Shown: positions 1-62,944, counted from the first letter of the stretch. The stretch is DNA of 64,000 nt from Patescibacteria group bacterium (GCA_023380755.1 JAMCSD010000008.1:24592-88591), one strand, 5' to 3'. Numbers and translations are program-made. The notes: generated by a model from the letters alone, not told the origin.

Positions 1-1
1 A

Positions 2-1522: not shown

Positions 1523-1535
1523 GGAATTTACTGCG

Positions 1536-1760
1536 ATGGTATACTATCTCTATATGGGTACCAGTGAGCAAATAGGTAGAAAGGTTAAAGAAATTCGTGA
1601 AAAAGCGAATCTCACCCAAGCACAGGTAGCTGATAAGGCAGGTATTCATGTCAATTACTTCGCCCGTTTGGAACGAGGAGAAGTCAACCCTTCGGCTGAT
1701 ATTTTGGAAAAAATCGCTAAAGCGCTTAAAGTCGCCTCGTCAGATATATTACCCTTCTAG
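1536..1760 (+). CDS. XRE-family helix-turn-helix transcriptional regulator
   Basis: IGRKVKEIREKANLTQAQVADKAGIHVNYFARLERGEVNPSADILEKIAKAL is a canonical HTH_XRE pattern. Alternative start ATG 1554 lies 8 nt after TGgTATACT (1537-1545). Confidence 0.85.
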   Translation: MVYYLYMGTSEQIGRKVKEIREKANLTQAQVADKAGIHVNYFARLERGEVNPSADILEKIAKALKVASSDILPF

Positions 1761-1824
1761 ATAAGTACGCTTGTTTAAGTTTGGATAGTTGCTATTTTTC
1801 TCAGAAAATGTGTCAATTATAGTA

Positions 1825-2496: not shown

Positions 2497-2680
2497 ACCT
2501 TAATCTCCATCGAAATTCGTCGCTCAAAGAAGCTAAGTTTGGAAGTGGTTGATGATAATAATATAGATATTAAAGGGAAATATTGTAACTAACAGAATCA
2601 TATCTAGGTTATGATTTAAGATAACTTTGTTTATAGGATAGTAGATTTACTGGACAGGTAGTAAAATACCGATTATATAG

Positions 2681-5600: not shown

Positions 5601-6115
5601 GATATAAACCAAAAATAATGTTTACTACTTTCCATTTAGGTGAATGGAGGCGAGCTACGTTTAATGAAACTGAGTTTGTGCCAGTATGGAAGGTGACAAA
5701 TAACGAGTATAGTAAAATACCTAACTTCATGGGAATATATAAGTTGAGAAGACGGCAGATACCAATATTTCGTATTTGGTTAAACGAGGGTAAAAAGGAG
5801 GTCCCAGAAGTAATTGTTACTGATCTTAAGAAACATATATTGCTGGATCAACATTATCCCTATTCTAATAAAACAGAACAATTAGATATGTTTCAAAAAG
5901 ATAATCTTGCCTTTAAAGTTATTGATCTATCTGATGATTTAAATAAGACTTATAGAAAGAAGCTGATAAAAGATAATCCAAATTGGTTAAGTAGCCAGAC
6001 AGATAAAGAGTCTTACCTTAAACAAAAAGTTGTTGTTCATATTAAAGAAAAGTTTAAATTAACTATCCTTGACCGGAAAGCGTCGATTAGGGTATCTATT
6101 CCGCATAATGATTAG
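2681..6115 (+). CDS. Large (1144 aa) hypothetical membrane-anchored protein, no recognisable domain
   Basis: Uninterrupted 3.4-kb ORF. About 5 hydrophobic helices in the first ~245 aa, then a K/E-rich soluble region. No Walker A, HExxH or nuclease motif seen by eye. Start (GTG 2681 or GTG 2690) uncertain. Confidence 0.75.
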   Translation: METVNINTIKENIGFLSIQCTNNTIICGFLLIFTVLASLSLFIFTVFAVKFLFKKIGTLKNYVVRYMNSYGDDKLWLATLKRIGGWNFGKVLYFEYLQQKLIFPIKQIYYPSAVSLISTILVAVTIFFFPFGNIDGKEYSTYIESNYYQNFFTIHAGIGAIILAFLILVAESSDLGKNYNKARLILKETLLFPLSVFEISSLFLLIISHNTYAGYLSILIVGLLTIWAICSVIRLFINRYIFLEKEKDLVNDMFSKRLDQAVKERIATNTLLEYFEKSKYAIDYSYFRPSNENYKALSTTKRGLLSDVHLKKLERILSDIEREANLLHLSIRKESKKEKKADKLSKLVNIQDNTSLSSVELSVLKLVGGKVTDDSSEIISIPKKLYENVKLRKRIQESLGSIFKITSEDSTEKEIRLELDETKDKAFSAIRESKVGVLGSVMEVYVGLIGQFLNTFQAYGGGYTSEAARKERNSLFGGWPYVRWIREDLHDIITEAIRSENDKLVREVAHIPSKIMYLAYTKKDHLIFQEFASFQSILYWETKNVKNKVLRKFLIDRTSRYLKEFVDYPLVRDIENTDISLGDIAQIKDFVFEILQNYKNLFKIAFDRKHIYTFEKFLISSQEIFKRFEPSKGYRQTDIELRLKVQGISDQQKQELSLELDKLKLLTEVEEAVKQKKRELIFGMSAWCLHKIEKTGFKEDELLKVWQMLFKYLPKDFDSAFKTYLSSSSRDTQSFWGWDWWELEEKRGKSDGVLSTTIDIDGKLNTLFAILILKIANGKTVDQFNVSGLIIPRDISFYFDGENSAVISIINKIMSNQAEWKNIVSAEEINANITVKQILAILVQRWKDEEKNRLIMARVDQGKVQEFINNFVDAYDSEICLRRLLLINGSMSKTLSFTKSKRYWGFNEIQDKEPFLTFGDVDYGDWGEHYGRGLAESEDSIIFKKIRSGSTRGNKSNSITEAVNQAINTLNSNGYKPKIMFTTFHLGEWRRATFNETEFVPVWKVTNNEYSKIPNFMGIYKLRRRQIPIFRIWLNEGKKEVPEVIVTDLKKHILLDQHYPYSNKTEQLDMFQKDNLAFKVIDLSDDLNKTYRKKLIKDNPNWLSSQTDKESYLKQKVVVHIKEKFKLTILDRKASIRVSIPHND

Positions 6116-6537
6116 ATTGAATTTATCGTAGCTAGGTAGTTTCCATCAGCCGATTAAAATGGGCCAGAATGTCCAAAAGGGGTTCATGTGAAAGGGCAGC
6201 GCCACGGCTAGATGGGATACCGAAATTGATAAACTTTTGTAAGTCCTGTTTCTTTAGTTCAAATAATTATTACTATCCTTGTGGGCAGAAGACCGCGAGG
6301 GTAAACTTTTATGAAGGGACTTCGTTTTTGCCTTTTCGGGATAAACGAGCATAAGTTTGTTAATCCAAGGCAGAAAAAGTTCGATAGAAAGTGCATTGGG
6401 GACACCAAAGGTGAGTCATGTTTGGGACTGTTATTAATAGTTTGGTGACACTGGGAAATGCAGTGGTTCGAAAAGGGTTCGACTCCCGATAGGCTGATCT
6501 GAAAAACAGATGGGGCTTTAGGCTTTATAATACTTAC

Positions 6538-7059
6538 ATGTGGGAAGATTTTTTATCAGATAACTATCCAAAGCCAACTGTCTTTACGGATACTGCACAA
6601 ATTTGTCTAAATGGGGATGTAATAAATGATTCAACAAATAGATCACCTCAGTTAAACAAGAAATTTTGCCCCAAGTGTGGTGAGCCAACTATTACCAAAT
6701 GTCCAGAATGTGGAAAAGAGATTGCTGGTGAAATTCATTATTCTAATGTTTTTGGAGCGCATTCTTTTAAGCGGCCGGCGTTTTGTATTGAATGTGGTAA
6801 ACCCTACCCTTGGACGATTAGAAAATTGAAGTCGGTAAAAGAACTAGCCTCTGAGATAGACGAGTTAACTCCAGAAGAGCACAAAACACTAGATAAAAGT
6901 ATTGATGAAATAACAAAAGACGATACACAAGCTCAAGTAGGAGCCATGCGAATTAAAAAAATAATGTCTAGAATTGGAAACGCTGCTAGTGAAATACTCC
7001 AAAAGACTATTGTTGATGTTGCGAGCGAAACTGCGAAAAAGGTTATTCTTGGAAGATAA
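6538..7059 (+). CDS. Zinc-ribbon protein (DUF2321-like by recollection)
   Basis: CPKCGEPTITKCPECG ... FCIECG cysteine pairs. TATAAT at 6526-6531 lies 6 nt before the ATG. Confidence 0.6.
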   Translation: MWEDFLSDNYPKPTVFTDTAQICLNGDVINDSTNRSPQLNKKFCPKCGEPTITKCPECGKEIAGEIHYSNVFGAHSFKRPAFCIECGKPYPWTIRKLKSVKELASEIDELTPEEHKTLDKSIDEITKDDTQAQVGAMRIKKIMSRIGNAASEILQKTIVDVASETAKKVILGR

Positions 7060-7189
7060 TATATGATTGATATGTGTGTTTCGATTTTTCTACTATATAG
7101 GTTTTTTTTTATAGGCTAGCTTCGTAGTTGGGATTTTATTACTCGAGGGAGTGCTATAATCGGTTGTTTTCTCAATAATTACATGTTTT

Positions 7190-7969
7190 ATGAAAAAAGT
7201 TAAAATTACATTCGGGTATTTATATCTTCCACTTATATTTATTGCTACTGGTCTTATATTAAATTATTTTGATAATCAGCTAAAAATTCCATTTATTCGA
7301 GGATTTGTAAATTCAAATTTATTGAACCCTCTTATTACAGTTTTAGTTGGTTCAATTGCGTATGTTTTATATAAAAAGCAAAAAGATGATTATAAAACTG
7401 ATGCTGCTAATGTAATTTTACTTGAAATTGAAAACGCAGAAAAAATGTTGAAAAAGGCATCGGAAAGTTTAGCAATTGGTACTACCAAACTGCATATAGT
7501 TCCTGAAAAGAATTTTGTTATGCAAACTGAAAGTTGGAGCAAATATAGATATCTTTTTGTAAGAGATTTTACCCAAACTGAATGGGATGCAGTTTCTGAT
7601 TTTTACAATAAATGTCATTTATTTGATCAAGCAATTATGGACAATGATTCATATTTAGAAAAAGATATGGACCTAATAAGGGAAAATGCCCACAAATATA
7701 TAGCTAAATTTATTAGTAATTCCGCAATCGAACTTGCATCTGCAAATAATGAAGATACAAACATGAAACAACAAAAAATTGAGAAAATAATGAAGAGTTT
7801 GAAGGAAGTAAGAATTCGTTTTAATGAGTTATACATTGATTCTGAAGATAAATTTCTTTATTCACCTCGCAAAGCGCAAAATGATGCTATTTTTTATATA
7901 GAAAATTTAAATTCTGATTTATCACTAACTACCGTAGGAAAAAAGTTACGAGAATTAGCCGGGTTGTAG
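7190..7969 (+). CDS. Hypothetical membrane protein (2 N-terminal TM helices, helical C-terminal domain)
   Basis: ORF of 259 aa. Hydrophobic segments ITFGYLYLPLIFIATGLILNYF and LLNPLITVLVGSIAYVLY. No known motif. Confidence 0.55.
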   Translation: MKKVKITFGYLYLPLIFIATGLILNYFDNQLKIPFIRGFVNSNLLNPLITVLVGSIAYVLYKKQKDDYKTDAANVILLEIENAEKMLKKASESLAIGTTKLHIVPEKNFVMQTESWSKYRYLFVRDFTQTEWDAVSDFYNKCHLFDQAIMDNDSYLEKDMDLIRENAHKYIAKFISNSAIELASANNEDTNMKQQKIEKIMKSLKEVRIRFNELYIDSEDKFLYSPRKAQNDAIFYIENLNSDLSLTTVGKKLRELAGL

Positions 7970-8095
7970 TTTTTGTTTAGATTTAATAGGTTTCAAAATT
8001 CATTATTGGGTTCTTCAAAGGCGACTCGCAACCGTTCCAACCAAGCTAAAGTCTGTCCGAACTGTTGAACTGAAGGCACACTTTTTGTTGACAAG

Positions 8096-21853: not shown

Positions 21854-21969
21854 ATATGGGAAAAGGTAAATAAGGGCTTAGAAGTTTAACACGTCAATTG
21901 CCGACATGGGAAGGAATGGGGTATACTAATATTATATTAGTAGTAGTTACTTTTTGACAGGAGGGCTAT

Positions 21970-48191: not shown

Positions 48192-48345
48192 GAGGAGTCA
48201 CCTCTCGAATGAGAGATAAATAAGGATACGGAAATTAACTAAGAGGAGGCTGAGAAATTAAAAGAGATAGCGGAATGAATAAATAATCTACTATTATTGT
48301 ACTAGTTGTTGAAAAGAGACGGTGGATTTTTTGGTATAATTCATT

Positions 48346-49945: not shown

Positions 49946-49976
49946 TTGACATTCTAGTTACTGGAAGGTGTAAAGT
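49946..49976 (+). promoter_or_regulatory. MerR-type promoter: TTGACA - 19 nt - TAAAGT, 7 nt before the merR-family ATG
   Basis: TTGACA 49946-49951. The 19-nt spacer contains the imperfect dyad TTCTAGT-T-ACTGGAA. TAAAGT 49971-49976. Confidence 0.55.
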
Positions 49977-49983
49977 AGCGATA

Positions 49984-50424
49984 ATGAAATACACTATCGG
50001 CCAAATCGCCAAACAAGTCGGACTACCGACAAAAACCATCCGGTTCTATGAAGAAGAAGGGGTAATTACTCCGGCCCAAAGGGGCGAAAACGGCTACCGG
50101 CTGTATCAAGAAATAACGGTTAAGGAATTACAAATGATTAAGTATGCCCGAGGACTGGGCATTCCCCTCTTGGAAATTAAACGGCTAATGAAGGGGTGTG
50201 AAGAGGGGCACTGCTCCCACTCAAAACAATTTGTGGACGAAAATATTAACCGATATTTAGGAGAACTAGACTCTAAGATAGGACAACTAAACACCCTTAA
50301 AAACAAATTGATAGAGTTGCAAAAAACATTAAAAACACAAAAGGCGAACTGCCCCAGCAATGAATACTGCTGTGATTTGCTCCACCAACTTATTGATTTA
50401 GACCAAGGAGGGAAAAATGCGTAG
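49984..50424 (+). CDS. MerR-family transcriptional regulator with Cys-rich C-terminal region
   Basis: YTIGQIAKQVGLPTKTIRFYEEEGVITPAQRGENGYRLY. Cys at GCEEGHC and CPSNEYCC. Confidence 0.88.
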   Translation: MKYTIGQIAKQVGLPTKTIRFYEEEGVITPAQRGENGYRLYQEITVKELQMIKYARGLGIPLLEIKRLMKGCEEGHCSHSKQFVDENINRYLGELDSKIGQLNTLKNKLIELQKTLKTQKANCPSNEYCCDLLHQLIDLDQGGKNA

Positions 50425-51470: not shown

Positions 51471-51983
51471 ATGACAGAAGAAGTGCAAAGATATACCGTA
51501 ATTCCCAGAGTTTTGGTTTTTGTTTTCAAAAATAATAAGCTGATGATGATGAAATACTCGGGTAAAGGCGGACACCAAACACAGGAAAAAGTAGATCGAA
51601 AAGATATTTACAACCCAATCGGTGGGCATATTGAGGATGGTGAAAGTCCAATAGATTGTGCTACTAAAGAAGCCATGGAAGAAGCGGGGATAAAACTTTT
51701 GAATCCGAAAATCAGCGGAGTGATTAATGTGTCGGGGTTTGCCGGAAAAAATATTATGAATTTCATTGTTTCGGGAACGACAGAAGACGAGCCAATAAAA
51801 GAAACCTTAGAAGGGACGATGGAATGGGTGGACTCAAAGGCAATTGACGGATTGAAAGTTTTCCCGGATTTGAAGCCGATCATGGATAAATTAATGTCAC
51901 TAAAAGAGGGACAAATGTTTACGGGAGTGATCGAATTTGACGGGAAGTTTGGGTTGAGAAAGATTGAGCTAAAAACGAATTGA
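51471..51983 (+). CDS. NUDIX hydrolase
   Basis: Nudix box GGHIEDGESPIDCATKEAMEEAGI. Confidence 0.85.
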   Translation: MTEEVQRYTVIPRVLVFVFKNNKLMMMKYSGKGGHQTQEKVDRKDIYNPIGGHIEDGESPIDCATKEAMEEAGIKLLNPKISGVINVSGFAGKNIMNFIVSGTTEDEPIKETLEGTMEWVDSKAIDGLKVFPDLKPIMDKLMSLKEGQMFTGVIEFDGKFGLRKIELKTN

Positions 51984-52051
51984 CTTATTAAGTACTATGC
52001 AGCGTAGTAGAAAGGCATATGATGATGGTAGTTAACCATTAATTTAAAAAA

Positions 52052-52306
52052 ATGATAAATACCGGAAGAGCAGTAAAGGCGAGTGTAGTGTGGATGACCG
52101 TAGTTTATTTAGTTTGCTATTTTGGGGTATTGCTACTGCCGGGAATAAGGGATTTATTTATGCAATACGCGTTGCACACTAAAGTGAGCGGCTGGGAAAA
52201 CGTCATGTCACTGACTACGCTGATAACGGGGGTGGTGGTCTGGGATGTGCTGGCAGCAGTGGGAGTGGGGCTGTTTGCCACGGTCTATAACCAAATAAAA
52301 AAGTAG
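52052..52306 (+). CDS. Small membrane protein
   Basis: 84 aa, 2-3 TM helices. Confidence 0.5.
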   Translation: MINTGRAVKASVVWMTVVYLVCYFGVLLLPGIRDLFMQYALHTKVSGWENVMSLTTLITGVVVWDVLAAVGVGLFATVYNQIKK

Positions 52307-52309
52307 GCT

Positions 52310-52567
52310 TTAGTCTTCGACAACCACAAGGGTATCGATAGGATCATGGACCTCCCAGCGAGGAGTAAAAGAGACAGAGTAGCCGCGATCGCCAAAAGTG
52401 ACGGAGTCTAAGTGGAGGCAATGGGTAAGGACTTGCTTTACCCGGGTAAAACCAATTTGGCTTTCAAAAACGCCGACAATGGTTTGACGGACACCGTTAA
52501 CAGAAATTTTGGTACCAGACTGATAAGGAGCAAGAGTATAAAGGAATTGTTCAGCGGAACGAGGCAT
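52310..52567 (-). CDS. Small hypothetical protein (last gene of DUF1573-like operon)
   Basis: 85-aa ORF beginning 1 nt after the upstream stop. Confidence 0.5.
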   Translation of the reverse strand: MPRSAEQFLYTLAPYQSGTKISVNGVRQTIVGVFESQIGFTRVKQVLTHCLHLDSVTFGDRGYSVSFTPRWEVHDPIDTLVVVED

Positions 52568-52568
52568 A

Positions 52569-53108
52569 TTAAAAAGCGAAATAATTAATGAGAAGGTATA
52601 CTGTCAGGCTGAGAGCCCAGAGACTACCCAAGGAAACAACAACCCGTTGATAAGGGAAGAAAATGCCATGGTGGAGCTTAATGGCGAGAGCATCAAGAAA
52701 ATCAACTAGATAGAAAAAGGCGCCCCCGAGAAGTAGGCCAAAGGTAAGCCGGGGTAAGCCGAAAAGGTCACCATTGTGAGTGCTAATTAACTTAAATTGA
52801 TAGAAAGACCAGAGGGTGGAAAGAAAAATTAGAAGATAGACAAGAGGTTTTTTGAGAGGAAATTTAAGTTTGCGGAGAGTGAAGGTGGTAAACCAGAAAG
52901 AAGTAGCACCCAAAAAGGCTGCCAACCAAATGCCGGTAATGCTGTCATCAACACCAAGAAGGCGGGAAAGGGTTAAGCCAGCGGCAGCGCCAGCGACACA
53001 CAGAGGGCAATGAGCCAGTGCGGGAGCAGCCAGCAAAAAGGTAAAGGCAAACAAATTAACCAGTAAGAAAAGGACTAACATGGGATGGTTAAATAATAGT
53101 GCCGGCAA
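52569..53108 (-). CDS. CPxC membrane protein (paralog of 44048-44536)
   Basis: Signal-like MLVLFLLVNLFAFTFLLAAPALA followed by HCPLC, then 4-5 TM helices. Overlaps the upstream gene by 20 nt. Confidence 0.65.
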   Translation of the reverse strand: MPALLFNHPMLVLFLLVNLFAFTFLLAAPALAHCPLCVAGAAAGLTLSRLLGVDDSITGIWLAAFLGATSFWFTTFTLRKLKFPLKKPLVYLLIFLSTLWSFYQFKLISTHNGDLFGLPRLTFGLLLGGAFFYLVDFLDALAIKLHHGIFFPYQRVVVSLGSLWALSLTVYLLINYFAF

Positions 53109-53580
53109 ATTTAAATTGCTTAACGCCGGAAGGATCCTGAAAATAAAGTTGAATTACGCGACGGAAAGGACCAACACCTTGTGGGCCGTGGGCGTTAGGA
53201 TCGAAATCAACCACAACTTTTCCGCTCTCCCCGGGATTGAGGGTCCAACCCAGAGGGGGGTTGAGAGCCCCAGCGGACTCCATGCCATAAAGATCGGATT
53301 CCTGATTACCAATAACCACCTTAGCTTTGGTACACATACAAGAGGTGGTAAGGCGACCAAGCTTCATGGGCTGGTTAGTGGAGTTTTTGAAGGTATATTC
53401 TTTGACCACCACTCCCCCTAAGCGAGGGACGTTGCCAAACTGATCTTCGTTGGCAGCGGCCTGGACACCAGCCAGGTCATTACTAATGGTGGCGGTCTGG
53501 TTGGTTTTAACAACAACCCAACCAGTAAAAATAGCAAATAAAAAGAAGCAGAGGAGGATAATTTTTAGTTCTTTAGGCAT
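53089..53580 (-). CDS. DUF1573-like secreted protein
   Basis: N-terminal anchor. TTSCMCTKAKV matches the DUF1573 SCxCT signature (recollection). VVDFDPNAHG. Confidence 0.7.
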   Translation of the reverse strand: MPKELKIILLCFFLFAIFTGWVVVKTNQTATISNDLAGVQAAANEDQFGNVPRLGGVVVKEYTFKNSTNQPMKLGRLTTSCMCTKAKVVIGNQESDLYGMESAGALNPPLGWTLNPGESGKVVVDFDPNAHGPQGVGPFRRVIQLYFQDPSGVKQFKFAGTII

Positions 53581-53594
53581 ATGTAGTTAATAAA

Positions 53595-53611
53595 TACTAC
53601 ATAGTGTAGTA
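53595..53611. promoter_or_regulatory. 17-bp palindromic operator TACTACATAGTGTAGTA (predicted BlaI/CopY-family site)
   Basis: Perfect 7+3+7 inverted repeat, 15 nt upstream of the DUF1573-like gene start. Confidence 0.6.
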
Positions 53612-53620
53612 TTTAAACCA

Positions 53621-53657
53621 TTGACAAGCAAGAGGTTAGTCACTACACTCCGTAGTA
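53621..53657 (+). promoter_or_regulatory. Promoter/operator of the DsbA-like gene: TTGACA-17-TACACT-7-ATG with operator CACTACACTCCGTAGTA
   Basis: TTGACA 53621-53626, TACACT 53644-53649, operator 53641-53657. The last A of the operator is the A of ATG 53657. Confidence 0.6.
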
Positions 53658-54556
53658 TGATGAGAAAAAACCATTCCCCAAAAGTTGTTAAAAGCGTCAG
53701 GCCAATGACTGCCCCACAACCGCAATTAAAAACGGATAATTCCAGGGTAGTAATAGCCACACCGGCAGTAATATTTTATATGGGACTACTGGTGGTGACC
53801 TCATTGATGGCGGGGTACGGCTGGGCAAAGACCGGAGGGGCTAAGGTGCTGGGAACCACAACTTCCCCGACAGCAGCACCGCAGGTACAACAACAAGCTC
53901 AGCAACAACAGCAGCCGGCGCAGCCCCAAGTCAGCCTGGAGACAATTAAAGGATTATTTTCAAAGGATCTGGTTAAATTTGGGAAAGGTGACAAGAAGCT
54001 CTTAATGGTGGAGGTGTCGGACCCCAGCTGCCCATACTGCCATATTGCTGGTGGGATAAATACCGAAATCGGGGCCCAAGCGGGACCAAGGTTTACCCTT
54101 ACTTCTCAAGGGGGAACCTATGTGGCACCCCTACCAGAGATGAGAAAACTGCTTGATGAAGGAAAGGCGGATTTTGTCTGGATATATACCCGAGGGCACG
54201 GAAACGGCGAATTGGCCACGAAGGCACTGTACTGCGCTTATGACCAAGGAAAATTCTGGGAAGCACATGATTTGTTACTGTCAGCAAAAGGCTATGATTT
54301 ACTGAATAATCAGATCCAAAACGATACTTCCAAAACTCAACAATTGGTGGATTTCTTGGCTTCAGCAGTGAACACACAACAATTAAAAAGCTGCTTGGAT
54401 AGCGGAAAGTACAATAACCGTCTGGCAGCCGATTCGGCGGTGGCAGCATCGTTGGGCGTCTATGGGACACCAGGATTCTTCTTAAATACGACTAACTTTG
54501 GCGGCGCTTACAGCTGGAACGATATGAAAAGTGTGGCTGAGGCGGCACTGCAATAG
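53657..54556 (+). CDS. DsbA-family thiol:disulfide oxidoreductase, membrane anchored
   Basis: Thioredoxin-fold active site DPSCPYCH. TM VVIATPAVIFYMGLLVVTSLMAGYGW. Gln-rich linker. Start set to in-frame ATG 53657 (track ORF begins at TTG 53621). Confidence 0.85.
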   Translation: MMRKNHSPKVVKSVRPMTAPQPQLKTDNSRVVIATPAVIFYMGLLVVTSLMAGYGWAKTGGAKVLGTTTSPTAAPQVQQQAQQQQQPAQPQVSLETIKGLFSKDLVKFGKGDKKLLMVEVSDPSCPYCHIAGGINTEIGAQAGPRFTLTSQGGTYVAPLPEMRKLLDEGKADFVWIYTRGHGNGELATKALYCAYDQGKFWEAHDLLLSAKGYDLLNNQIQNDTSKTQQLVDFLASAVNTQQLKSCLDSGKYNNRLAADSAVAASLGVYGTPGFFLNTTNFGGAYSWNDMKSVAEAALQ

Positions 54557-54729
54557 TTAATTGGCTTTGAGAGTTTTAAGGGTAGGCTTGGCGTGATCCA
54601 GGGGACGGCGGAAAAATTCGTCAAGAGTAAAAATATACTGCGTCTGGTGAATCATAATTTATTTAAATGGTAATGGTAAATAATAGCTCCTTGACCATTA
54701 AATTATGGTGAGGTTGAAATGAAAATTTT

Positions 54730-56148
54730 TTAATGTTTGACAGAAGATGGTGGAAGTTTTTTCAACAGAGGAAGGCTGATGGTAACAGAAGTACCGAAAG
54801 CAACTCGGCTGTAAATGGAAATAGCGCCATGATGGGCTTCGATTACACCTTTGGTAATAGATAAGCCTAAGCCTGAGCCGGGAATTTCGGGCGATTGGCG
54901 ACCACGGTAAAATCGATTAAAGATATATGGCAAGTCTTGGGGAGGGATGCCAACACCGTGGTCAGCAATAACAATCAAGGCAGTATTCTTGGTGGTCTGA
55001 AGGTTAATGGTAATTAACTTATTTTTAGGACTATATTTAACGGCGTTTTCAACGACGTTGAGGAGAGCCCGATGCAACTTGTCATACCGGCCCAAAATAA
55101 AAACTTTAGGGGTAATTGAGGAATGAGTCTTAATATTTTTAACCGAAGATAGGGTGTGGGCAATGTCGACTAAATCGAAGGCGAGTTTAGATAAGTCAAC
55201 TGCTTTTAGGGAAAGATGGTCATTTTCTACTTCCGACCAGGATAAATCTAAGATTTCCTTAGTAAGGGAAGAAATAGTTTGAGCGTCATGCAAAGATTCG
55301 CTTATAATTTGGCGGTATTCACCGGAAGAGCGAGGATGAGAAAGGGCTAGCTCAAGATTACTTTGAAGGATGGTTAAAGGAGTTTTTAATTCATGAGCTA
55401 CGTCAGCCATAAATTGCTGTTCACGCTTAAGAATGGAATGTATCCGGTCAATAAGATTATTAAAACTGATAGTTAGTTGTGAGAGTTCATCATTATTACC
55501 AGGAACGATTAATTTTTCGCGAGGGTCGAGAGGGTTGATTTGTTGGATTTGGGAAGAAATTTTTTTAAAGGGGCGGAGGCCTAATTTGGTGACTAAATAG
55601 CCACTAATTATAGTGAGCAGGGTTAATAATAGAAAAATTACAACTAGGAGAATTAGGAGATTATGAAACGATTTTTGGACGTCATCGACGGGATGACCAA
55701 TTAATAAGATGCCGAAAAACTTATGGTTTTCACGAAGAGGGATAAGGTAAAAACGAATTAGGGTGTGGTTAAAATTTTGTTCAACGAAAAGATTGCCTTT
55801 TGAATTTTGGGCAACAGTAAAAAGATGAGAGATGGCCTGAGTGTCGGCTGAAGAATATAAGGAACTAACGACGATTTTTCCATTATTATTAAGAAGGAAC
55901 AATAGTTCACCAGGTTTTTCTGGAATTTTATTTTGAAAGGTCTGGTTATCAACCAGATGGCCACCAATAAGGTCTTGCTGAATTGCAGCCTGAGCGGCAA
56001 CAAGACCATCGGTGGTCAGAAATTCATCAATATATTTGTAGGTGATGCGAAGGCTATCTAGATAGACAATAGTAAGGATAAAAAAGATGGCTACAGTAAA
56101 AGCTAAAATATACCAAATCGATAAACGCCAAGTTAAACTAAGTTTCAT
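54730..56148 (-). CDS. Sensor histidine kinase (CusS/CopS-like)
   Basis: 2 TM helices. H-box FMADVAHELKTPLT. N/G boxes NVVENAVKY, DHGVGI, GSGLGLSI. Confidence 0.92.
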   Translation of the reverse strand: MKLSLTWRLSIWYILAFTVAIFFILTIVYLDSLRITYKYIDEFLTTDGLVAAQAAIQQDLIGGHLVDNQTFQNKIPEKPGELLFLLNNNGKIVVSSLYSSADTQAISHLFTVAQNSKGNLFVEQNFNHTLIRFYLIPLRENHKFFGILLIGHPVDDVQKSFHNLLILLVVIFLLLTLLTIISGYLVTKLGLRPFKKISSQIQQINPLDPREKLIVPGNNDELSQLTISFNNLIDRIHSILKREQQFMADVAHELKTPLTILQSNLELALSHPRSSGEYRQIISESLHDAQTISSLTKEILDLSWSEVENDHLSLKAVDLSKLAFDLVDIAHTLSSVKNIKTHSSITPKVFILGRYDKLHRALLNVVENAVKYSPKNKLITINLQTTKNTALIVIADHGVGIPPQDLPYIFNRFYRGRQSPEIPGSGLGLSITKGVIEAHHGAISIYSRVAFGTSVTISLPLLKKLPPSSVKH

Positions 56149-56819
56149 AGTTCAGTGCTGATCTTGTAGCCAACACCACGTAAGGTATGAATTAATTTGG
56201 GATTATAACCGCGATCGATTTTTTTTCGAAGGGAACCAATAAAGACATCAACGATATTGCTCATACTTTCAAAGTTATAATCCCAAACGTGTTCAACAAT
56301 CATTGTTCGAGTGACAACCTCGTCCTGGTGGCGCATTAGGTATTCTAGGATGGCAAATTCCTTTTGAGTTAATAAAATTTTTTTGTCCTGGCGACTAACA
56401 CTGTGTTTTAAAGGATCAAGCTCGAGGTCGTTAATTTTTAGAACTGAGGCAAGATTACTTTGAGAACGGCGCAATAAAGCTTGAATGCGAGCTCGAAGCT
56501 CAGAAAAAGAAAATGGCTTGGTAAGATAATCGTCGGCGCCATTTTCAAGGCCGGTAATTTTATCTTCAATGGTAGATTTAGCAGTCAGCATGATAATGGG
56601 AGTTATAATATTTTTTTGCCGGAGTTCGCGACAGATGGAAACCCCGTCCTTTTTGGGGAGCATAATATCAAGAACAATAAGATCATAATTTTCGGTTTCA
56701 GCCAAATATTGACCCTCTTCACCATCTAGGGCCGCGTCTACAGCAAAGCCATCTTCGATAAAGCCCTTTTTGATGGTTGTGGATAAGCGTTGTTCGTCTT
56801 CAATTAAAAGCAATCTCAC
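56145..56819 (-). CDS. OmpR-family response regulator (CusR/CopR-like)
   Basis: Receiver domain LLIEDE...DLIVLDIMLPKKDG. C-terminal wHTH TLRGVGYKI. GTG start 6 nt after TACACT. Confidence 0.92.
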   Translation of the reverse strand: MRLLLIEDEQRLSTTIKKGFIEDGFAVDAALDGEEGQYLAETENYDLIVLDIMLPKKDGVSICRELRQKNIITPIIMLTAKSTIEDKITGLENGADDYLTKPFSFSELRARIQALLRRSQSNLASVLKINDLELDPLKHSVSRQDKKILLTQKEFAILEYLMRHQDEVVTRTMIVEHVWDYNFESMSNIVDVFIGSLRKKIDRGYNPKLIHTLRGVGYKISTEL

Positions 56820-56871
56820 ATCTTAAGTGTATTGATTCTTCATGAAAATTAGATGAAGACGGGGCGAGAAA

Positions 56872-57459
56872 TTATTTTTGCCTCTTAGAAACAAGGGGAC
56901 GATTGACCAGCCATCGGATCAGGAGAAGGGCAAGAATGGCTAATGGCACCCAAAAAAGAAGCATGGGAAGCCACCCGAGCGTGTATCCCCAGTTATTTAA
57001 GTAATTCATCATACCGTTACCATAGGTGTTCGTCCAATTGCCCATCATGCCGCCAAAGCCCATCATCGGCCCAACCCCAGAATATTGGGCGGGGAATGGG
57101 GCTTGAAGATTACAACCGCTCAAACGCTTACCTAAGGCAATGTGCATTTGTTTTTCGCCACTATCCCCCATCATTTGAGTCATACGGTTGTTCATAAGAT
57201 CGTGGGCCTGGGTGCTGCCTGCCATTTGACCCATATAGTAATCGCCCAAAGCGTCATAGTCATCATCGGTTAATTGTTGGCAGGTGGTTTTTTTCGCCTG
57301 AAGATCGTCAAAGATTTGCCTGCCTTTAGCCTCATCTTGGGCGGTACCGGAAACAGTTTCCGGAGAGGAAGGATTATTGAACCAGCCCATCATACCTTGA
57401 GCAGAAACGGGAATAGTAAAAGAAAACAAAAGAACAAGAATAAGTAGAAGAGATTTCAT
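56872..57459 (-). CDS. Secreted Met/Gly-rich protein, probable Cu(I)-binding
   Basis: Signal peptide. MMGWF, MTQMMGDSGEKQMH, GPMMGFGGMMGNWTNTYGNGMMNY. C-terminal TM. Confidence 0.6.
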   Translation of the reverse strand: MKSLLLILVLLFSFTIPVSAQGMMGWFNNPSSPETVSGTAQDEAKGRQIFDDLQAKKTTCQQLTDDDYDALGDYYMGQMAGSTQAHDLMNNRMTQMMGDSGEKQMHIALGKRLSGCNLQAPFPAQYSGVGPMMGFGGMMGNWTNTYGNGMMNYLNNWGYTLGWLPMLLFWVPLAILALLLIRWLVNRPLVSKRQK

Positions 57460-57462
57460 AAA

Positions 57463-59799
57463 TTACATACTAGAAAAACGGGCAAAAATCACAAAGATAC
57501 TGAGAAAAGCAGAAACCATAATATACGGAGCCAAAGTAGAAACCCAATTATAACGACCGGGACGATAGAGCTTGAGGGTCAGGGAGTTGGTAACCACGGA
57601 AACAGAAGAAAGAGCCATGGCCAGACCAGCCAGCTCGGGTTTTAAGATTAAACCAAAGGAAGCCAGAGCCCGGGCGGCAATGGGAATACCTAAAACATTG
57701 TAAAAGAGAGCAAAAAACATATTCTGTTTAATCTTGCCAACAGTTTGGCGAGAAAGATCGATGGCGGTTAAGACACCACGAAGGTCATTGCTCATAATGA
57801 CGACACTCCCCGCTTCCATAGCGACATCAGCACCGCTGGCCATGGCCAGACCAAGATTGGCTTGGGTGAGGGCGGGAGCATCATTAATGCCATCGCCAAC
57901 CATGGCAACAGTAAGACCCTGATCTTGAAGAGCTTTGACCTCAGCGGCTTTATTTTGGGGTAAGACTTCAGCCAAGACATGAGTAATCCCCAACTCTCGG
58001 CCGATAGCCTCGGCGGTACGGCGGTTATCGCCAGTAATCATATAGACAGTAATGCCCATTTTTTGGAGTTTTTTGATAACTTCGGCTGACGTTTCTTTGA
58101 GCTGGTCGGCAACAGCAATCAGAGCCAAGACTTTAGAGTCGGAGGACAAAGCCATGACCGTTTTGCCTTGGGACTGCAACTCCTCGATTTGAGAAGTGGA
58201 GGTTTCGGGTTTGGAAACTAAATACTTTTGGCCGTTAATCTCGGCAGTAACACCGTGGCCGGGAAGAGCGGAGAAATTAGTAATTAGAAGTTGGGAATTA
58301 GGAATTAGTTTTTTGCAGTATTCAACTATGGCGGCGGCCAGGGGGTGTTCGGAACGAGATTCAATGGCGTGGAGGATAGATAAAATTTCTGAATCCGGTT
58401 TATTGGATAAATTAATAAAATCGGTGACCTCAGGCTTACCTTTAGTGAGAGTACCGGTTTTATCAAAGATAATACAATTAACTTTTTGAGCAATTTCGAG
58501 GGGCTCGCCACCTTTAATGAGGACACCATACTCGGCGCCCTTGCCAGTACCGACCATAATTGAAGTGGGGGTGGCCAGGCCCAAGGCACAAGGACAGGCA
58601 ATGACAATGACGGCAACAAAGGTTAAAAGGGAAAAGGTTAAGGTGGCATGCAACAAGAAAAACCAGATAACAAAGCTGAGAAGGGCGAGGCTAATGACTG
58701 AAGGCACAAAGATGGCGGAAATACGGTCGGCAAAGTCCTGGATGGGGGCTTTGGAACCTTGGGCGTCTTCAATTAACTTAATGATCTGAGAAAGAGCAGT
58801 ATCGGCACCAATTTTGGTAGTCCGAAACTCAAAGGAACCGGTCTTATTGATAGTAGCGGTATAAACTTTAGAGCCAACAGTTTTTTCCACGGGTAAAGAT
58901 TCGCCAGTCAGAATAGATTCGTCGACCGCGGAGTAACCAGAGACAATTTCCCCATCGACAGGAATGCGATCACCAGGACGGATAACAACAATATCGCCCA
59001 GAACAACTTGTTCGACCGGCACTTCAATAAGTTCATTGTTCCTTTTAACATGGGCAGTTTTAGGAGCCAGACCCATGAGTTTTTGAATAGCTTCGGAAGT
59101 TTTACCCTTAGCCCGGGCTTCAAGCCATTTACCCAGAGAGACAAAGGTAATTAAAAAAGAGGCAACTTCAAAATAAAGATTAGGAACTTTGGCGCCGTTG
59201 AGACCCAGAAGCGAATGAGTGGTGAGGAAATAGGAAAGGTACTCAATTAAGCTGTAAACATAGGCAGTACCGGTGCCAATAGCAATTAAACTATCCATGG
59301 AAAAGGTGCGAACCTTAAGGGCCGAGAAAGCACCGGCAAAGAAATTGCTGCCAACATAAAATAAAACCGGAGTCGACAAGAGAAGAGAAATTAAACCAGC
59401 ATAAGGCATGATAACCATCCTGAAGGGCAGAGCCGGGATAAAGTCATAAAGCATGAACAAAAGCATGGGGAAGCTAAGCAAAACGCCAAGACTAAACTTT
59501 TGCCGCCAATAGTTCATTTCAGCTAAACGCTTTTCGCGAGGGGTAACACTTGGATTAGGCAGAGAGGCGTGGTAGCCGGCGACTTCAACGGCCTTAATTA
59601 AATCAGCAACTTTGGCAGTAGAAGGATCATAAACGACATGGGCTTTCTCGGAGGCATAATTGACATTGGCCTCGGTGACACCGGGAACCTTGGAAACGGA
59701 TTTTTTGATTAGCAGAGCACAACTGGCACAATGCATGCCGGTAATATCGAGGTTGGCAACTTGTCGTCCACCAGAGGTGGATTTCACATCGTTTGACAT
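57463..59799 (-). CDS. copA: Copper-translocating P1B-type ATPase
   Basis: N-terminal HMA GMHCASC, TM CPC ([11 protein letters not shown]), [15 protein letters not shown]. Confidence 0.95.
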
Positions 59800-59800
59800 A

Positions 59801-60028
59801 TTAAGCTAGAGGTTCGACGACTGGCGTGTAGCCAGTATCTTTAATAACTTGAGACAATTGCTCGGGTTTAACCGCCGTGGGATCGTATTCGATAGTCACT
59901 TTTTTGGTTTCTAAAGAAGCCTGGACACTGGAAACGCCTGGGGTTTCCTCAAGATTCATCTGAATAATTTTGGGACAAGAAGGACAGTGCATATCGTTGA
60001 CCCGATAGGTAATTATTTGAGTGGTCAT
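59801..60028 (-). CDS. copZ: Copper chaperone (HMA domain)
   Basis: 75 aa, MHCPSCP metal-binding loop. Confidence 0.9.
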
Positions 60029-60070
60029 ATGATTATTTTAAATTTCTAATTTCTAATGTCTACTGATTAA

Positions 60071-61585
60071 TTAATGACAGGAATTACCGCCTCCCCCGCC
60101 ACAACCACAGCCCTTAGCTCCGGAACCAACCGGCTGAGCGGCACCAGAAGTAGTACCACTATAACCGTTAGCATCAATCACAGTAATAGTACCGGTATAC
60201 ATGCCCATAGTGCAGCTAAAGCGATAGACGCCGGGAGTAGTGGGAGTAAATTCTTTAGTGACAGTTTGGCCAGGAATAGTGTCGATACGACCAGAAAAGA
60301 GGCCCTGAGAAACAATGGAGGAAGCACAACCAGCACTACCATCATTGCTAATCTGCCAAGAAACGGGGGTGCCGGCTTTGACCGTAAACTGATTGGGGGT
60401 GTAACCAGCAGAAGTAACGGTCATGGTAATCACCTGTTTACCGTTAACCTGAGGAACAAGGGCAGCCTGAGCGGTGTTAGCGGAAGAAGAAGTAGCTTGG
60501 GTGGTAGGAACTAAGGAAGAAAAACTGGGTAAACCGATAACGGTAAGCTGATTATTGATATTGAAAAGAGCAAAAAACAAGACTAAATAACCGGCAATAA
60601 CAGAGAATTTAGCGGAAGTTTCGGGGTTACTATGAAGTTTAACACTACTATAGCCAATGGCTATAAGCCCAGGAATAGTGCCAATAGCAAAGAGGCCCAT
60701 AATCAGAGCACCGGTGAGCGGGTTGCCAGAAGCTAACGCCAGGGCTTGAGCAGTAATAGTAAACCCACAAGGTAGTAAAAAGGTGAGAGCGCCCATGAGA
60801 AAAGGGGCAAATTTGCCGGTGAAATTTGATTCATCGCTAATGCTGCCGGTAATAGACTTGGGGAGGCTGATTTGGAACTGAGCCAAGGATCTGACCCCCA
60901 ACATTTGGAGACCTAAAAGAATCATGACGGCGGAAACCGCAATAATCAAGAGGGCGGTAAAAAGGGGTGACAACTGGAAGACATTACCAACCAAGCCCAG
61001 AAGAGCACCGCCAGCAGCGTAACCGACCACCCGGCCGGTATTGAATAAAATGTGAGGCTGCATTTTTTGAAGAGTGTCGTCGCTATTGCCAAAATTCCCC
61101 ACCCACTGCTTACTAACGGAAAGAATAATGCCACCCACCAGGGCAGCACAACTACTAAAGCCAGCCAAAAGGCCAAAAATTAAGAAAACGGGAAGCGCAG
61201 TGCCGGCACCAACCGAGACCAGAGAGGTTAAACCGGTTTTATCGAGGAACAAAAAGCCAATGATAATAATGCCAGCAATAAAAAGGCTAGAAAGAGGGTT
61301 GCTTTGAGGGACAGCACAGGTAGAGTCTAAGGCGACAGCTCGGGAGGAAGAAAAAGGGGTAGTAGAAAAGCGATAATGGTCATCATGGAAAAGTTTAGAT
61401 AAGTATTTGGCGGTGAGGCGATCCCCGGACTGGTGCTCGATAATGACTTGGTTTTTGGACAAAGAGGCATCAACCATTTCGACGGTCGGCTCTTTGATAA
61501 TCTTTTTTTCAATTAAAATTTCGCAGGAAGCGCAATGCATACCGCGAATGTAAAAAGTGGAACGGATGAGTTTGGTTGATGACAT
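60071..61585 (-). CDS. HMA domain - TauE/SafE- or DsbD-like permease - cupredoxin fusion protein with Cys/Gly tail
   Basis: Start set to MSSTKLIRSTFYIRGMHCASCE (61585), since the track ORF upstream part overlaps the M56 gene. About 8 TM helices. C-terminal YRFSCTMGMYTGTITV (cupredoxin ligands). Tail GCGCGGGGGNSCH. Confidence 0.8.
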   Translation of the reverse strand: MSSTKLIRSTFYIRGMHCASCEILIEKKIIKEPTVEMVDASLSKNQVIIEHQSGDRLTAKYLSKLFHDDHYRFSTTPFSSSRAVALDSTCAVPQSNPLSSLFIAGIIIIGFLFLDKTGLTSLVSVGAGTALPVFLIFGLLAGFSSCAALVGGIILSVSKQWVGNFGNSDDTLQKMQPHILFNTGRVVGYAAGGALLGLVGNVFQLSPLFTALLIIAVSAVMILLGLQMLGVRSLAQFQISLPKSITGSISDESNFTGKFAPFLMGALTFLLPCGFTITAQALALASGNPLTGALIMGLFAIGTIPGLIAIGYSSVKLHSNPETSAKFSVIAGYLVLFFALFNINNQLTVIGLPSFSSLVPTTQATSSSANTAQAALVPQVNGKQVITMTVTSAGYTPNQFTVKAGTPVSWQISNDGSAGCASSIVSQGLFSGRIDTIPGQTVTKEFTPTTPGVYRFSCTMGMYTGTITVIDANGYSGTTSGAAQPVGSGAKGCGCGGGGGNSCH

Positions 61586-61621
61586 ACTACAGAGTGTAGT
61601 ATGTACTCTGGATATCGTCAA
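61585..61621 (-). promoter_or_regulatory. Promoter/operator of the copper operon: TTGACG-17-TACACT-7-ATG with operator TACTACACTCTGTAGTA
   Basis: Minus-strand reading: TTGACG at 61621-61616, TACACT at 61598-61593, palindrome at 61601-61585 ending on the A of the ATG. Confidence 0.65.
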
Positions 61622-61628
61622 GGGGGAA

Positions 61629-62546
61629 TTATAAACAAGGGGTAGAAGAAAGACGGTCCATGACTTGAGTGTGGGTGGTTTGGGAAGTAAAAAGAGTCTG
61701 CCAACAACGGCTGAGGTGGCGACAATCATAAAAAGCAGAGGTGGTCGAAAGAGTGGTAAGAGCAAAGAAAAGAATAACCACCAGGCCACCAAGACCAGTG
61801 AATAAGGCAAACAAATTAGGACGAGAACGGCCGACCAGAGCGGCAAAACGTTCGTGTTGGGCACTAAAATGGGAGGCAACGGCATATTCGGGAACGGCAG
61901 CAGACTGAATAGCAACAAGAGCAGAAATTAAAGGTTTGTTAGTGCCTAAGCGGGAAGCAGCATAAAGGTCAGCCGAAATTTCACTTAAAGTGTCAAAGTG
62001 GCCAAAGAGCCAACCAGAACCAAAGAAGGGAGGTAAAACAGAATTTACCAATTTAAGGAGGATTTTTTTGAGCGGATCGAGTTCTTGGCGATGGAGTTCT
62101 TCGTGATACAAAATTGAAGCAAGCTCATCGGAAGAAAAAGTATCAATGGTGGGAGTACTAACAAATACCTGAGGATAGAGGAAGCCGAGAGTAAAAGCTT
62201 CAAGCCGGGAAGAGGGTAAAACGGTGTAAGAACCGGAGCTAAGAGAAGAGTGTTTTTGAAGAAAGCGGCGGGTGTGAAAAACTTCGAGAAAAAAACAGAA
62301 GACGGCCCGGATAAGGCGGCAAGAAAGATAGAGAACGGCCAAGAGGGAAAGAAAATTAAAGAGGACAGAAATGAAAGAGAGATTAAAAGGGAGATGATTC
62401 TTAAGAGAATCAGCCAGAGTAATGAAGTACATTAAATTACTGCGAAGTATCCGATCGGAGATAACAAAGAAACCGAAGAGGTAACCAAGGCCTAACAAAA
62501 AAAGCAAGGTAAAAAGAGTATTTTTGGCAAGTAAATACTTTTTCAT
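61629..62546 (-). CDS. BlaR1-like M56 metallopeptidase (short form, no penicillin-binding sensor domain)
   Basis: 4 TM helices. HExxH in ILYHEELHRQE. 4-nt overlap with the upstream repressor gene. Confidence 0.8.
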   Translation of the reverse strand: MKKYLLAKNTLFTLLFLLGLGYLFGFFVISDRILRSNLMYFITLADSLKNHLPFNLSFISVLFNFLSLLAVLYLSCRLIRAVFCFFLEVFHTRRFLQKHSSLSSGSYTVLPSSRLEAFTLGFLYPQVFVSTPTIDTFSSDELASILYHEELHRQELDPLKKILLKLVNSVLPPFFGSGWLFGHFDTLSEISADLYAASRLGTNKPLISALVAIQSAAVPEYAVASHFSAQHERFAALVGRSRPNLFALFTGLGGLVVILFFALTTLSTTSAFYDCRHLSRCWQTLFTSQTTHTQVMDRLSSTPCL

Positions 62547-62908
62547 GAATGATCTTTTAAATAGGACTTAAGAAGTTCTAAATCCTTTTTGTTGGACTTA
62601 ACGACATCGACAAACTGAGAAATGGCCAGATCTTTGTAAGAACCAACCAAAGTGTCGTAAATGGAAGAAAGGTTATCTTTGATAAATTTATTTTTATCCT
62701 CAGCCGGTTTATAAACATAAGCTTTACCGACCAGTTGCCGTTTGAGGATTTTTTTATCGGTCATGCGTTTGAGCTCAGTCATGATAGTAGTGTAGGCATA
62801 CTTATCCCCTAGCGAAGACAAGACTTCGGCGGGTTTTAGGGGGTGATCGGCGGCCCAAATGACATCCATGATTTTTTGCTCGAGGGTACCCAAGATTTGA
62901 TGAGACAT
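62543..62908 (-). CDS. BlaI/MecI/CopY-family winged-helix repressor
   Basis: LGTLEQKIMDVIWAADHPLKPAEVLSSLGDKYAYTTIMTELKRMTDKKILKRQLVGKAYVYKP. No C-terminal CxC metal motif. Start set to MSHQILG (62908). Confidence 0.88.
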   Translation of the reverse strand: MSHQILGTLEQKIMDVIWAADHPLKPAEVLSSLGDKYAYTTIMTELKRMTDKKILKRQLVGKAYVYKPAEDKNKFIKDNLSSIYDTLVGSYKDLAISQFVDVVKSNKKDLELLKSYLKDHS

Positions 62909-62944
62909 ACTATGTATTGTAGTAGTAGAGATGGGCTTTGTCAA
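62908..62944 (-). promoter_or_regulatory. Autoregulatory promoter/operator: TTGACA-17-TACAAT-7-ATG with operator TACTACAATACATAGTA
   Basis: Minus-strand reading: TTGACA at 62944-62939, TACAAT at 62921-62916, 17-mer at 62924-62908 ending on the A of the ATG. Embedded in the 3-prime end of the NUDIX gene. Confidence 0.6.

Follow-up and report, generated by a model that had tools for sequence, protein, structure and literature searches.

In a 64,000-nucleotide stretch from a Patescibacteria group bacterium (GCA_023380755.1, JAMCSD010000008.1:24592-88591; the whole stretch is referred to here as the window), genes for copper efflux and for extracytoplasmic thiol-redox proteins carry the same 17-base-pair (bp) palindrome at their promoters, which raises the questions of which protein reads this palindrome and to which signal the genes respond. 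To our knowledge, almost nothing is known of transcriptional regulation in Patescibacteria, the candidate phyla radiation (CPR), whose members are not growable alone. By the source names of identical and related proteins, the host of the window is placed near Candidatus Shapirobacteria. Here, we present evidence from the sequence that the palindromes are very probably operators of the BlaI/MecI/CopY-family repressor encoded beside them. We regard as probable the combined reading, in which these operators, the regulon that they define and a copper-responsive proteolytic induction belong together and, by analogy with known systems, we lean slightly towards copper, acting through the membrane protease encoded next to the repressor, as the inducer.

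Searching the window with the pattern YACTAY-N5-RTAGTA gave nine strand-matches, corresponding to five sites; by 100 dinucleotide shuffles, none of which held more than one match, the expectation is 0.01. All five 17-bp sites, with the consensus TACTACA-N3-TGTAGTA, are intergenic or promoter-positioned and confined to a gene island of about 11 kilobases (kb) at 51993-62924 (operators 1 to 5; Table 1). The original prediction for this DNA had described four palindromes; all four coordinates agree with the sequence, but the total does not stand, as the same pattern gives operator 5 in addition. The pattern search, proposed at that time as a check, found the motif to be rare in the window and promoter-associated. 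Operator 4 is a perfect palindrome except for its central 3 nucleotides (nt), and it lies 46 bp from operator 3 within a divergent promoter region of 76 bp (53581-53656). Relaxing the pattern to two mismatches added one match only in the window, at 5581, which was set aside, being located inside a gene and carrying 2 mismatches. No further 17-bp sites (17-mers) occurred in the other 62 kb examined, which include 9 kb by which the contig continues past the end of the window. At all five window sites three bases separate TACA from TGTA, a spacing that departs from the two bases of the cop box, and no classical TACAnnTGTA cop box (16-mer with at most one mismatch) was found in the window promoters. 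Weak 16-mer-like matches with 1-2 mismatches (21930, 48289, 44535 and others) were treated as probable chance, including the 2-mismatch dyads at 21930-21945 (TATTATATTAGTAGTA, upstream of an HtrA-like protease gene) and at 48289-48304 (TACTATTATTGTACTA, upstream of an unannotated gene of 214 amino acids, aa). An Rfam scan of the window returned a single tRNA and no match in the island.

The way in which the palindromes are laid over the promoters, established both by direct reading of the sequence and by a promoter scan, suggests how a bound repressor would act. In three promoters (operators 1 to 3) the -10 hexamer takes up palindrome positions 4-9, the start codon comes after a further 7 nt, and its A coincides with the final base of the palindrome; for these three cases the geometry originally described is exact to the nucleotide. 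A repressor dimer bound to the five palindromes would exclude RNA polymerase from the promoters, because the left half-site holds the -10 box at four promoters and the right half ends on the start codon at three. The repressor would also regulate itself, because operator 1 covers both the -10 box and the start codon of the repressor gene. The same geometry predicts leaderless transcripts from three promoters. A role of the palindrome in RNA structure was rejected, since the predicted transcript begins at its last base in three of the five cases. Operator 5 is arranged differently: a TTGACT hexamer (51980-51985) ends 7 nt before the palindrome, and a TACAMT hexamer facing the DUF5676 gene is absent. 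Two further features were seen at these promoters. The repressor promoter and operator (62910-62944) sit in the final codons of the upstream NUDIX gene, so that the palindrome encodes the NUDIX C-terminal YYYNT, and the stretch from operator 5 to the start of DUF5676 contains an open reading frame (ORF) of 7 codons (MMMVVNH, 52029-52052).

The candidate for reading these sites is a 121-aa protein matching PF03965 (Penicillinase_R) with 77.1 bits, against a cutoff of 22.6 bits, over residues 6-118. Its nearest solved relative is BlaI of M. tuberculosis (2G9W, profile E = 7e-14), and BlaI and MecI of S. aureus were also matched. In a profile alignment, Q98-F99, part of a conserved AISQFVD/AIANFVD motif, falls on N101-F102 of S. 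aureus BlaI/MecI (SQF vs LNF), the known cleavage site of these proteins; F99 is invariant, and ANF is found in many repressors of the same type (type A, described below). The repressor TGA overlaps the protease ATG as ATGA, in agreement with the translational coupling that had been predicted, and a repressor-protease pair with overlapping stop and start is kept in about 35 distinct loci. In one related locus (L054:2006-3142) the two ORFs are fused into one of 378 aa, joined just past QFVD, which suggests a deletion or an assembly error.

The same protein could instead be imagined to sense the metal itself, being released from DNA by Cu(I) as CopY is, with the protease unrelated to induction. 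In favour of this, the CopY/TcrY model TIGR02698 is its best NCBIfam match, and its relatives include true Cys-rich paralogues. However, the match reaches only 43.8 bits against the equivalog cutoff of 121.95 bits. Further, the CopY C-terminal CxC-x4-CxC metal site is absent, as originally noted, and the observation extends to the whole protein, which is devoid of cysteine and of His-rich or Met-rich motifs. The conserved pairing with the protease and the conserved position aligned with the BlaI cleavage site also speak against direct sensing, which we rejected for the lack of cysteine and regard as highly improbable.

If the palindromes are operators, they should recur with the same genes elsewhere, and they do. 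We gathered 91 related loci via homologues of the repressor and scanned their 784 kb with T[AG]CTAC-N4/5-GTAGTA, which gave 156 sites in these Patescibacteria loci, compared with 2.4 in shuffles. Of 131 non-redundant sites, 118 could be tied to a known gene family, located ahead of genes for BlaI-family proteins (52), the HMA-DsbD_2-cupredoxin fusion (39), DsbA-like proteins (10), copA (9), CPLC membrane proteins (5), DUF1573 (2) and DUF5676 (1), and at 92 of these 118 the palindrome is separated from the ATG by 0-5 nt. A site at the position of operator 1 is present in 29 non-redundant loci of the 17-mer kind and in 23 of the 16-mer kind, and one at that of operator 2 in 20 and 19, respectively. 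DsbA-like genes have an operator in L006, L007, L036, L067, L020, L048, L055 and L077; in L006 and L007 both this gene and the repressor gene have a 17-mer, and in L036 the divergent two-operator layout recurs, with the sites 45 bp apart. Homologues of the HCPLC/CPLC membrane protein have their own operator in L036, L066, L067, L068 and L086, and in L006 a degenerate 17-mer (TACTATAAAGTGTAGAA) is found 35 nt upstream of a DUF5676 gene that is itself inside a copper gene cluster. The exact 17-mer pattern had no match in the first five related loci, because relatives have N4 spacing and TGCTAC variants, and not because the operator is absent. Sites whose right half reads GTCGTA (TACTACACTTGTCGTA) or whose spacing is unusual and longer (TGCTACAATCGTCGTAGTA) were missed by the pattern in L030, L053, L057 (upstream of the repressor gene), L069 and L070. 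On this sequence comparison, the link of copper export to Dsb genes through the operator is conserved and not specific to the window, because the same operator precedes the same gene families in related genomes. The predicted regulon joining copper efflux and disulfide genes is thereby supported across dozens of related genomes, in which the operator spacing co-varies with the repressor clade.

These comparisons also bear on two other explanations of the palindrome. It could be a mere shared promoter and leaderless-start module, copied among promoters without being bound by a repressor, as the -10 box in the left half and the ATG at the right end might suggest. The left half would suffice for a promoter, yet the symmetric GTAGTA is kept even at sites 15-45 nt distant from the ATG (operators 4 and 5 and the DsbA site of L006). 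Further, HMA-gene promoters in relatives have TTGACA at a constant distance, and many repressor promoters in relatives have TGCTACAAT or TGCTACACT, an extended -10 box that accounts for the A/G variation at palindrome position 2; both the TGCTACAAT extended -10 and the -35-dependent promoter versions retain the dyad. The sites are also not copies of one another, because their flanks and central bases differ, and we give such a module almost no credence. Alternatively, another factor could bind the palindromes, such as the CueR-like MerR or the CusR-like regulator, both of which are encoded in the island, with the BlaI-like protein regulating something else. MerR activators bind between the -35 and -10 boxes of promoters with 19-20-bp spacers; the spacers here are 17 bp. 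In addition, the motif fits the TACA/TGTA operators of the BlaI/MecI/CopY family, tracks BlaI-family genes over at least 80 loci, on their start codons, and changes its spacing with the BlaI clade, which leaves binding by a different factor extremely unlikely. The adjacent repressor is the protein that we favour as the reader of the sites.

The spacing itself divides the operator family in two. The 16-mer of the relatives (TACTACA-NN-TGTAGTA) contains the TACAnnTGTA cop box, whereas the 17-mer has TACA-NNN-TGTA. Three repressor types can be told apart: type A, to which the window protein belongs, has the protease gene next to it and a BlaI-like C-terminal domain (AISQFVD...DLxLLKxYL); type B has an N-terminal MNCDCHCNGKC-like Cys cluster and a short C-terminus and is without a protease; and type C is 27-30% identical to the window protein and in two of four loci is followed by a gene that scores as an M56-type protease. 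The 17-mer is confined to one large type A clade, comprising 29 non-redundant sequences in the tree as well as L090 (P0006), fetched later, which has 17-mers at both sites. 16-mers go with types B and C and, within type A, with the deep branches (L055, L056, L077) and a single nested subclade. The spacing at the type A gene equals that at the HMA gene in every genome, and in 17-mer genomes 16-mers stand at type B and C genes, at copA (L015, L026, L049, L052) and at rubrerythrin, NifS-like and ECF sigma genes. L089, the closest relative (71% identity, same neighbours), has 16-mers at both sites: its repressor-gene site TACTACAATCATAGTA is the window TACTACAATACATAGTA minus exactly one base, and its HMA-gene site TACTACAATCGTAGTA differs from the window TACTACACTCTGTAGTA by being one base shorter and by substitutions. 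Because all sites switch spacing in concert, one factor appears to read them, and spacing to matter. At residue 77 of the repressor, all 29 type A proteins with a 17-mer have I, V or L, and type A proteins with a 16-mer have A or S, a correlation that is confounded by phylogeny. Type B repressors (L006:611-979, L035:4665-5018, L062:2180-2533, L081:3846-4190 and about 30 other loci) have their Cys cluster at the N-terminus, compared with the C-terminus in CopY, and their genes always have 16-mer operators and are often divergent from rubrerythrin, NifS-like cysteine desulfurase or ECF sigma genes.

For the signal, the protease encoded after the repressor is of particular interest. Its HExxH motif and its lack of a penicillin-binding domain, both contained in the original prediction, stood: no Pfam or NCBIfam match to a penicillin-binding (class D beta-lactamase-like) sensor domain was found, and the chain ends 42 residues past the last hydrophobic segment. 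The protease resembles BlaR1 at the profile level only. The best solved match of the family profile is BlaR1 8EXP, residues 108-326 (transmembrane segment 3, TM3, protease and TM4), with E = 3.5e-4; a phmmer search of the PDB with the single sequence gave no match, and a word-indexed homologue search gave 3 relatives only. Eighteen of the 25 family members match M56. Among 25 homologues, 20-32% identical to the window protease, H148, E149, H152, E189, D193, C275 and C281 are invariant and H277 nearly so. C275-x-H277-x3-C281 sits in the 42-residue tail encoded at 61629-61754, beyond the last TM segment; as the family profile matches TM3-protease-TM4 of BlaR1, this tail follows the TM4 equivalent, at the position where BlaR1 bears its extracellular sensor domain. 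Hydropathy and charge distribution predict a cytoplasmic protease domain and an outward-facing C-terminal tail. Many of the 25 proteases have an additional distal His/Cys motif (DHC or HC), and the C-x-H-x3-C tail is absent from proteases paired with type C repressors.

Regulated proteolysis is, by analogy with PetRP and BlaIR, the most likely and best-supported mechanism of induction, because the repressor has no cysteine and the repressor-protease pair is conserved. In such a mechanism, the co-translated M48/M56 protease would be activated at the cell envelope by copper or by copper-linked thiol oxidation, with the C-x-H-x3-C tail, in the BlaR1 sensor-domain position, as the candidate sensor, and would cut the repressor near Q98-F99, releasing all five promoters. 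The regulon would comprise five units: the repressor-protease pair; the HMA-DsbD_2-cupredoxin/copZ/copA/Met-rich operon, possibly with the CusRS-like genes; the DsbA-like gene; the DUF1573-HCPLC operon; and the DUF5676 gene. The cargo genes, which encode CopA, CopZ, the Met-rich protein and the cupredoxin-like domain, make copper the most likely signal, and thiol oxidation is the main alternative. In the latter case the same operator-repressor-protease circuit would answer to envelope thiol or disulfide stress, or to another thiophilic agent, the C-x-H-x3-C tail would be a redox switch and copper would be left to the CusRS-like system or the CueR-like MerR. The predicted extracytoplasmic tail, with two invariant Cys at a distance of five residues, would suit such a switch, thiol-redox proteins are found, by our count, in three of the five units (DsbA-like CPYC, DUF1573 CxC, HCPLC), the island has genes for a heavy-metal-type response regulator and histidine kinase and for a CueR-like MerR, and copA in relatives often has its own 16-mer and not a 17-mer. 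On the other hand, copZ and copA of the window have no operator of their own and are directly downstream of the gene controlled by operator 2, a 17-mer, and this first gene of the operon bears HMA and cupredoxin-like metal sites. Moreover, PetP, the only characterised sensor-less BlaR-type protease with a BlaI-type partner that we found, answers to copper. We therefore consider a thiol signal unlikely, though it deserves more weight than the other explanations above.

Copper-responsive proteolytic induction through the operators thus remains our preferred reading, and several points weigh against it. Binding, cleavage and induction by copper are predictions from sequence. Only the cargo genes point to copper as the signal; copper may in fact be sensed by the CusRS-like system or by the CueR-like MerR, and in that case the BlaI pair would sense something else. 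The M56 label that the original prediction gave to the protease needs qualifying, as the protein scores 19.8 bits against the Pfam M56 cutoff of 31 bits and passes M48 (26.3 bits, cutoff 20.3). The loci were picked for encoding a repressor homologue, so that the association of sites with repressor genes, though not with the other families, is partly by construction. The 1-bp difference between very close relatives could mean that the dimer tolerates both spacings, which would weaken the argument from co-variation. Finally, operator 5 is the least typical of the five, and its role in the control of DUF5676 is less certain because no embedded -10 box faces this gene.

The genes under the operators and their neighbours are listed in Table 1. 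In the fusion protein, C18 and C21 of the HMA domain and C146 and C273 in TM segments are invariant in 36 homologues, and C420 and C458-x-M460-x-M462 of the cupredoxin-like part (Cys2Met2) are kept in 33-34 of these 36. The CopA translation has the CPC, YN-x4-P (YNVLGIP) and M-x2-SS (MALSS) motifs of a P1B-1 Cu(I) exporter. The Met-rich gene, 3 nt downstream of copA, probably belongs to the copA operon, and the CusRS-like pair, on the same strand and 52 nt after the Met-rich gene, may be co-transcribed with it; the membership of this pair in the regulon is uncertain. With regard to the window as a whole, the plus strand is strongly enriched in purines over its full length (GC skew about +0.2, AT skew about +0.15) despite genes on both strands, and the first 8000 nt (1-8000), with a G+C content of 0.32-0.38 compared with 0.42-0.50 elsewhere and an ORF of 1144 aa, may be an acquired or compositionally unusual region.

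Table 1. Operators, promoters and genes of the copper and thiol-redox island, with positions counted from the first base of the window.
Feature	Position	Strand	Description
Operator 1, TACTACAATACATAGTA	62908-62924	-	covers -10 TACAAT (62921-62916) and ATG of repressor gene
Operator 2, TACTACACTCTGTAGTA	61585-61601	-	covers -10 TACACT and ATG of HMA-DsbD_2-cupredoxin gene
Operator 3, CACTACACTCCGTAGTA	53641-53657	+	covers -10 TACACT (53644-53649) and ATG of DsbA-like gene
Operator 4, TACTACACTATGTAGTA	53595-53611	-	holds -10 TACACT of DUF1573 operon
Operator 5, TACTATGCAGCGTAGTA	51993-52009	+	DUF5676 gene 43 nt downstream
Repressor promoter, TTGACA-17-TACAAT	62944-62916	-	11/12 matches; top promoter-scan score in a 12-kb region
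-35 hexamer TTGACA of repressor promoter	62939-62944	-	within 3' end of upstream NUDIX gene
HMA-DsbD_2-cupredoxin promoter, TTGACG-17-TACACT	61621-61593	-	-35 at 61621-61616
DsbA-like gene promoter, TTGACA-17-TACACT	53621-53649	+	-35 at 53621-53626
DUF1573 operon promoter, TTGCTT-17-TACACT	operator 4	-	leader of 15 nt
BlaI/MecI/CopY-family winged-helix repressor, 121 aa	62543-62908	-	PF03965, 77.1 bits
Membrane zinc metalloprotease, M48/M56 type, 305 aa	61629-62546	-	HEELH 148-152, E189
HMA-DsbD_2-cupredoxin fusion	60071-61585	-	cytoplasmic HMA with GMHCASC; DsbD_2/CcdA-like membrane domain; extracytoplasmic cupredoxin-like domain
CopZ-like HMA copper chaperone, 75 aa	59801-60028	-	domain models
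CopA, P1B-type Cu(I) ATPase	57463-59799	-	TIGR01511, 617.9 bits (cutoff 397)
Met-rich (8.7% Met) protein, 195 aa	56872-57459	-	secreted or membrane-anchored; 3 nt downstream of copA
CusRS/CopRS-like response regulator	56145-56819	-	TIGR01387, 267 bits, just under cutoff
CusRS/CopRS-like histidine kinase	54730-56148	-	TIGR01386, 223 bits, just under cutoff
DsbA-like thioredoxin-fold protein	53657-54556	+	membrane-anchored; CPYC active site; PF13462, PF01323
DUF1573 protein	53089-53580	-	C81-M-C83; secreted or membrane-anchored; domain match
Membrane protein, 170 aa	52569-53081	-	predicted mature N-terminus HCPLC; downstream in DUF1573 operon
DUF5676 protein, 84 aa	52052-52306	+	two TM segments; Pfam
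CueR/ZntR-like MerR regulator, Cys-rich	49975-50421		model match; same island

As a compact regulon recurring in many genomes, the system offers a defined operator, a promoter architecture and a candidate signalling mechanism that are testable in a heterologous host. The split between 16-mers and 17-mers is a natural experiment on how spacing and repressor specificity may co-evolve among paralogues. We also put forward a tentative idea, which we hold to be doubtful, that the 1-bp spacing is a specificity code insulating paralogous regulons, together with the short C-x-H-x3-C tail standing in for the BlaR1 sensor domain. If this idea were true, two or three BlaI/CopY paralogues would run separate regulons in one minimal CPR genome. 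The Cys-rich CopY-like paralogue would read cytoplasmic copper and, through 16-mers, control copA, rubrerythrin and Fe-S repair genes, and the protease-coupled paralogue would respond to copper or thiol damage at the envelope and, through 17-mers, control the DsbD-like/cupredoxin, DsbA-like, DUF1573 and DUF5676 genes. The extracytoplasmic tail, a possible replacement of the BlaR1 sensor domain, would then sense copper or the redox state directly. Such a code would be labile in evolution, with the sites of a regulon switching jointly even at 71% repressor identity and tracking residue 77 (I/V vs A/S).

Comparison with known systems shows which parts of this design are shared. The experimentally defined CopY operator has 16 bases, RNYKACANNTGTMRNY (PMC7253601). 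Like CopY/CopR of E. hirae, S. pneumoniae and L. lactis, the window system has a PF03965 repressor, a TACA/TGTA dyad over the promoter of copZ/copA and predicted autoregulation. Unlike CopY, it has N3 in place of N2, no CxC-x4-CxC, a coupled protease and Dsb-type genes in its putative regulon. The 16-mers of the relatives, which contain TACAnnTGTA, nearly fit the CopY RNYKACANNTGTMRNY, whereas the 17-mers of the window do not correspond to it. With BlaI/BlaR1 and MecI/MecR1 of staphylococci and Bacillus, and with Rv1846c/Rv1845c, the window shares the pairing of repressor and protease and the position aligned with the cleavage site; unlike BlaI/BlaR1 and MecI/MecR1, it lacks a penicillin-binding sensor, and its cargo consists of metal and redox genes, with neither a beta-lactamase nor PBP2a as a target. 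BlaR of M. tuberculosis is also without the sensor domain, and the operator of its BlaI is a TAC(G/T)AC-N5-GT(A/C)GTA dyad; our literature searches did not recover this motif. A functional link of copper and Dsb proteins is likewise known from the Scs systems of enterobacteria and Caulobacter, where copper tolerance is tied to a DsbD-like reductant transporter and DsbA/DsbG-like periplasmic proteins. The Scs proteins are not known to be homologous to those of the window at the operon level, and their regulation is of the CpxR/CueR type and not by BlaI.

The closest parallel is PetR/PetP of Synechocystis sp. PCC 6803, in which PetR is degraded in a copper- and PetP-dependent manner (Garcia-Canas et al., bioRxiv 10.1101/2020.07.31.226407; PNAS 2021). 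The PetR operator is GACA-N3-TGTC, and PetP is an M48/M56 HExxH protease that has four TM segments but lacks a sensor domain, and whose gene start overlaps the petR stop (bioRxiv 10.1101/2020.07.31.226407). Compared by its published description (Slr0240/Slr0241), this pair is like that of the window in having a BlaI/CopY-family regulator without the CopY cysteines, overlapping genes, a sensor-less M48/M56 HExxH membrane protease and an inverted repeat with N3 between ACA and TGT cores, the outer bases of which differ. PetR, however, runs the switch between plastocyanin and cytochrome c6 (petE, petJ), as both activator and repressor and with a very small regulon, whereas the predicted targets in the window are genes for copper efflux and for extracytoplasmic thiol-redox proteins. 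The half-site also differs (TACTACA vs GACA), the window operator covers the -10 box as well as the start codon, and the proposed copper ligands of PetP are two Met in the TM2-TM3 loop, as opposed to the candidate C-terminal C-x-H-x3-C here. Apart from PetRP, the library literature searched on copper regulation and leaderless transcription in Patescibacteria/CPR and on BlaI/BlaR with copA or copper resistance yielded no account of a comparable repressor-protease system for copper genes, within CPR or outside it. The original claim that such BlaI/BlaR1-type wiring had not been described thus falls in principle, because PetR/PetP was already described with the same design, and it stands for the regulon content and the lineage, which alone are new here. 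If the reading proposed here is true, PetR/PetP-type copper sensing by proteolysis would reach beyond cyanobacteria and a photosynthetic switch, to copper efflux and the thiol-redox defence of the envelope.

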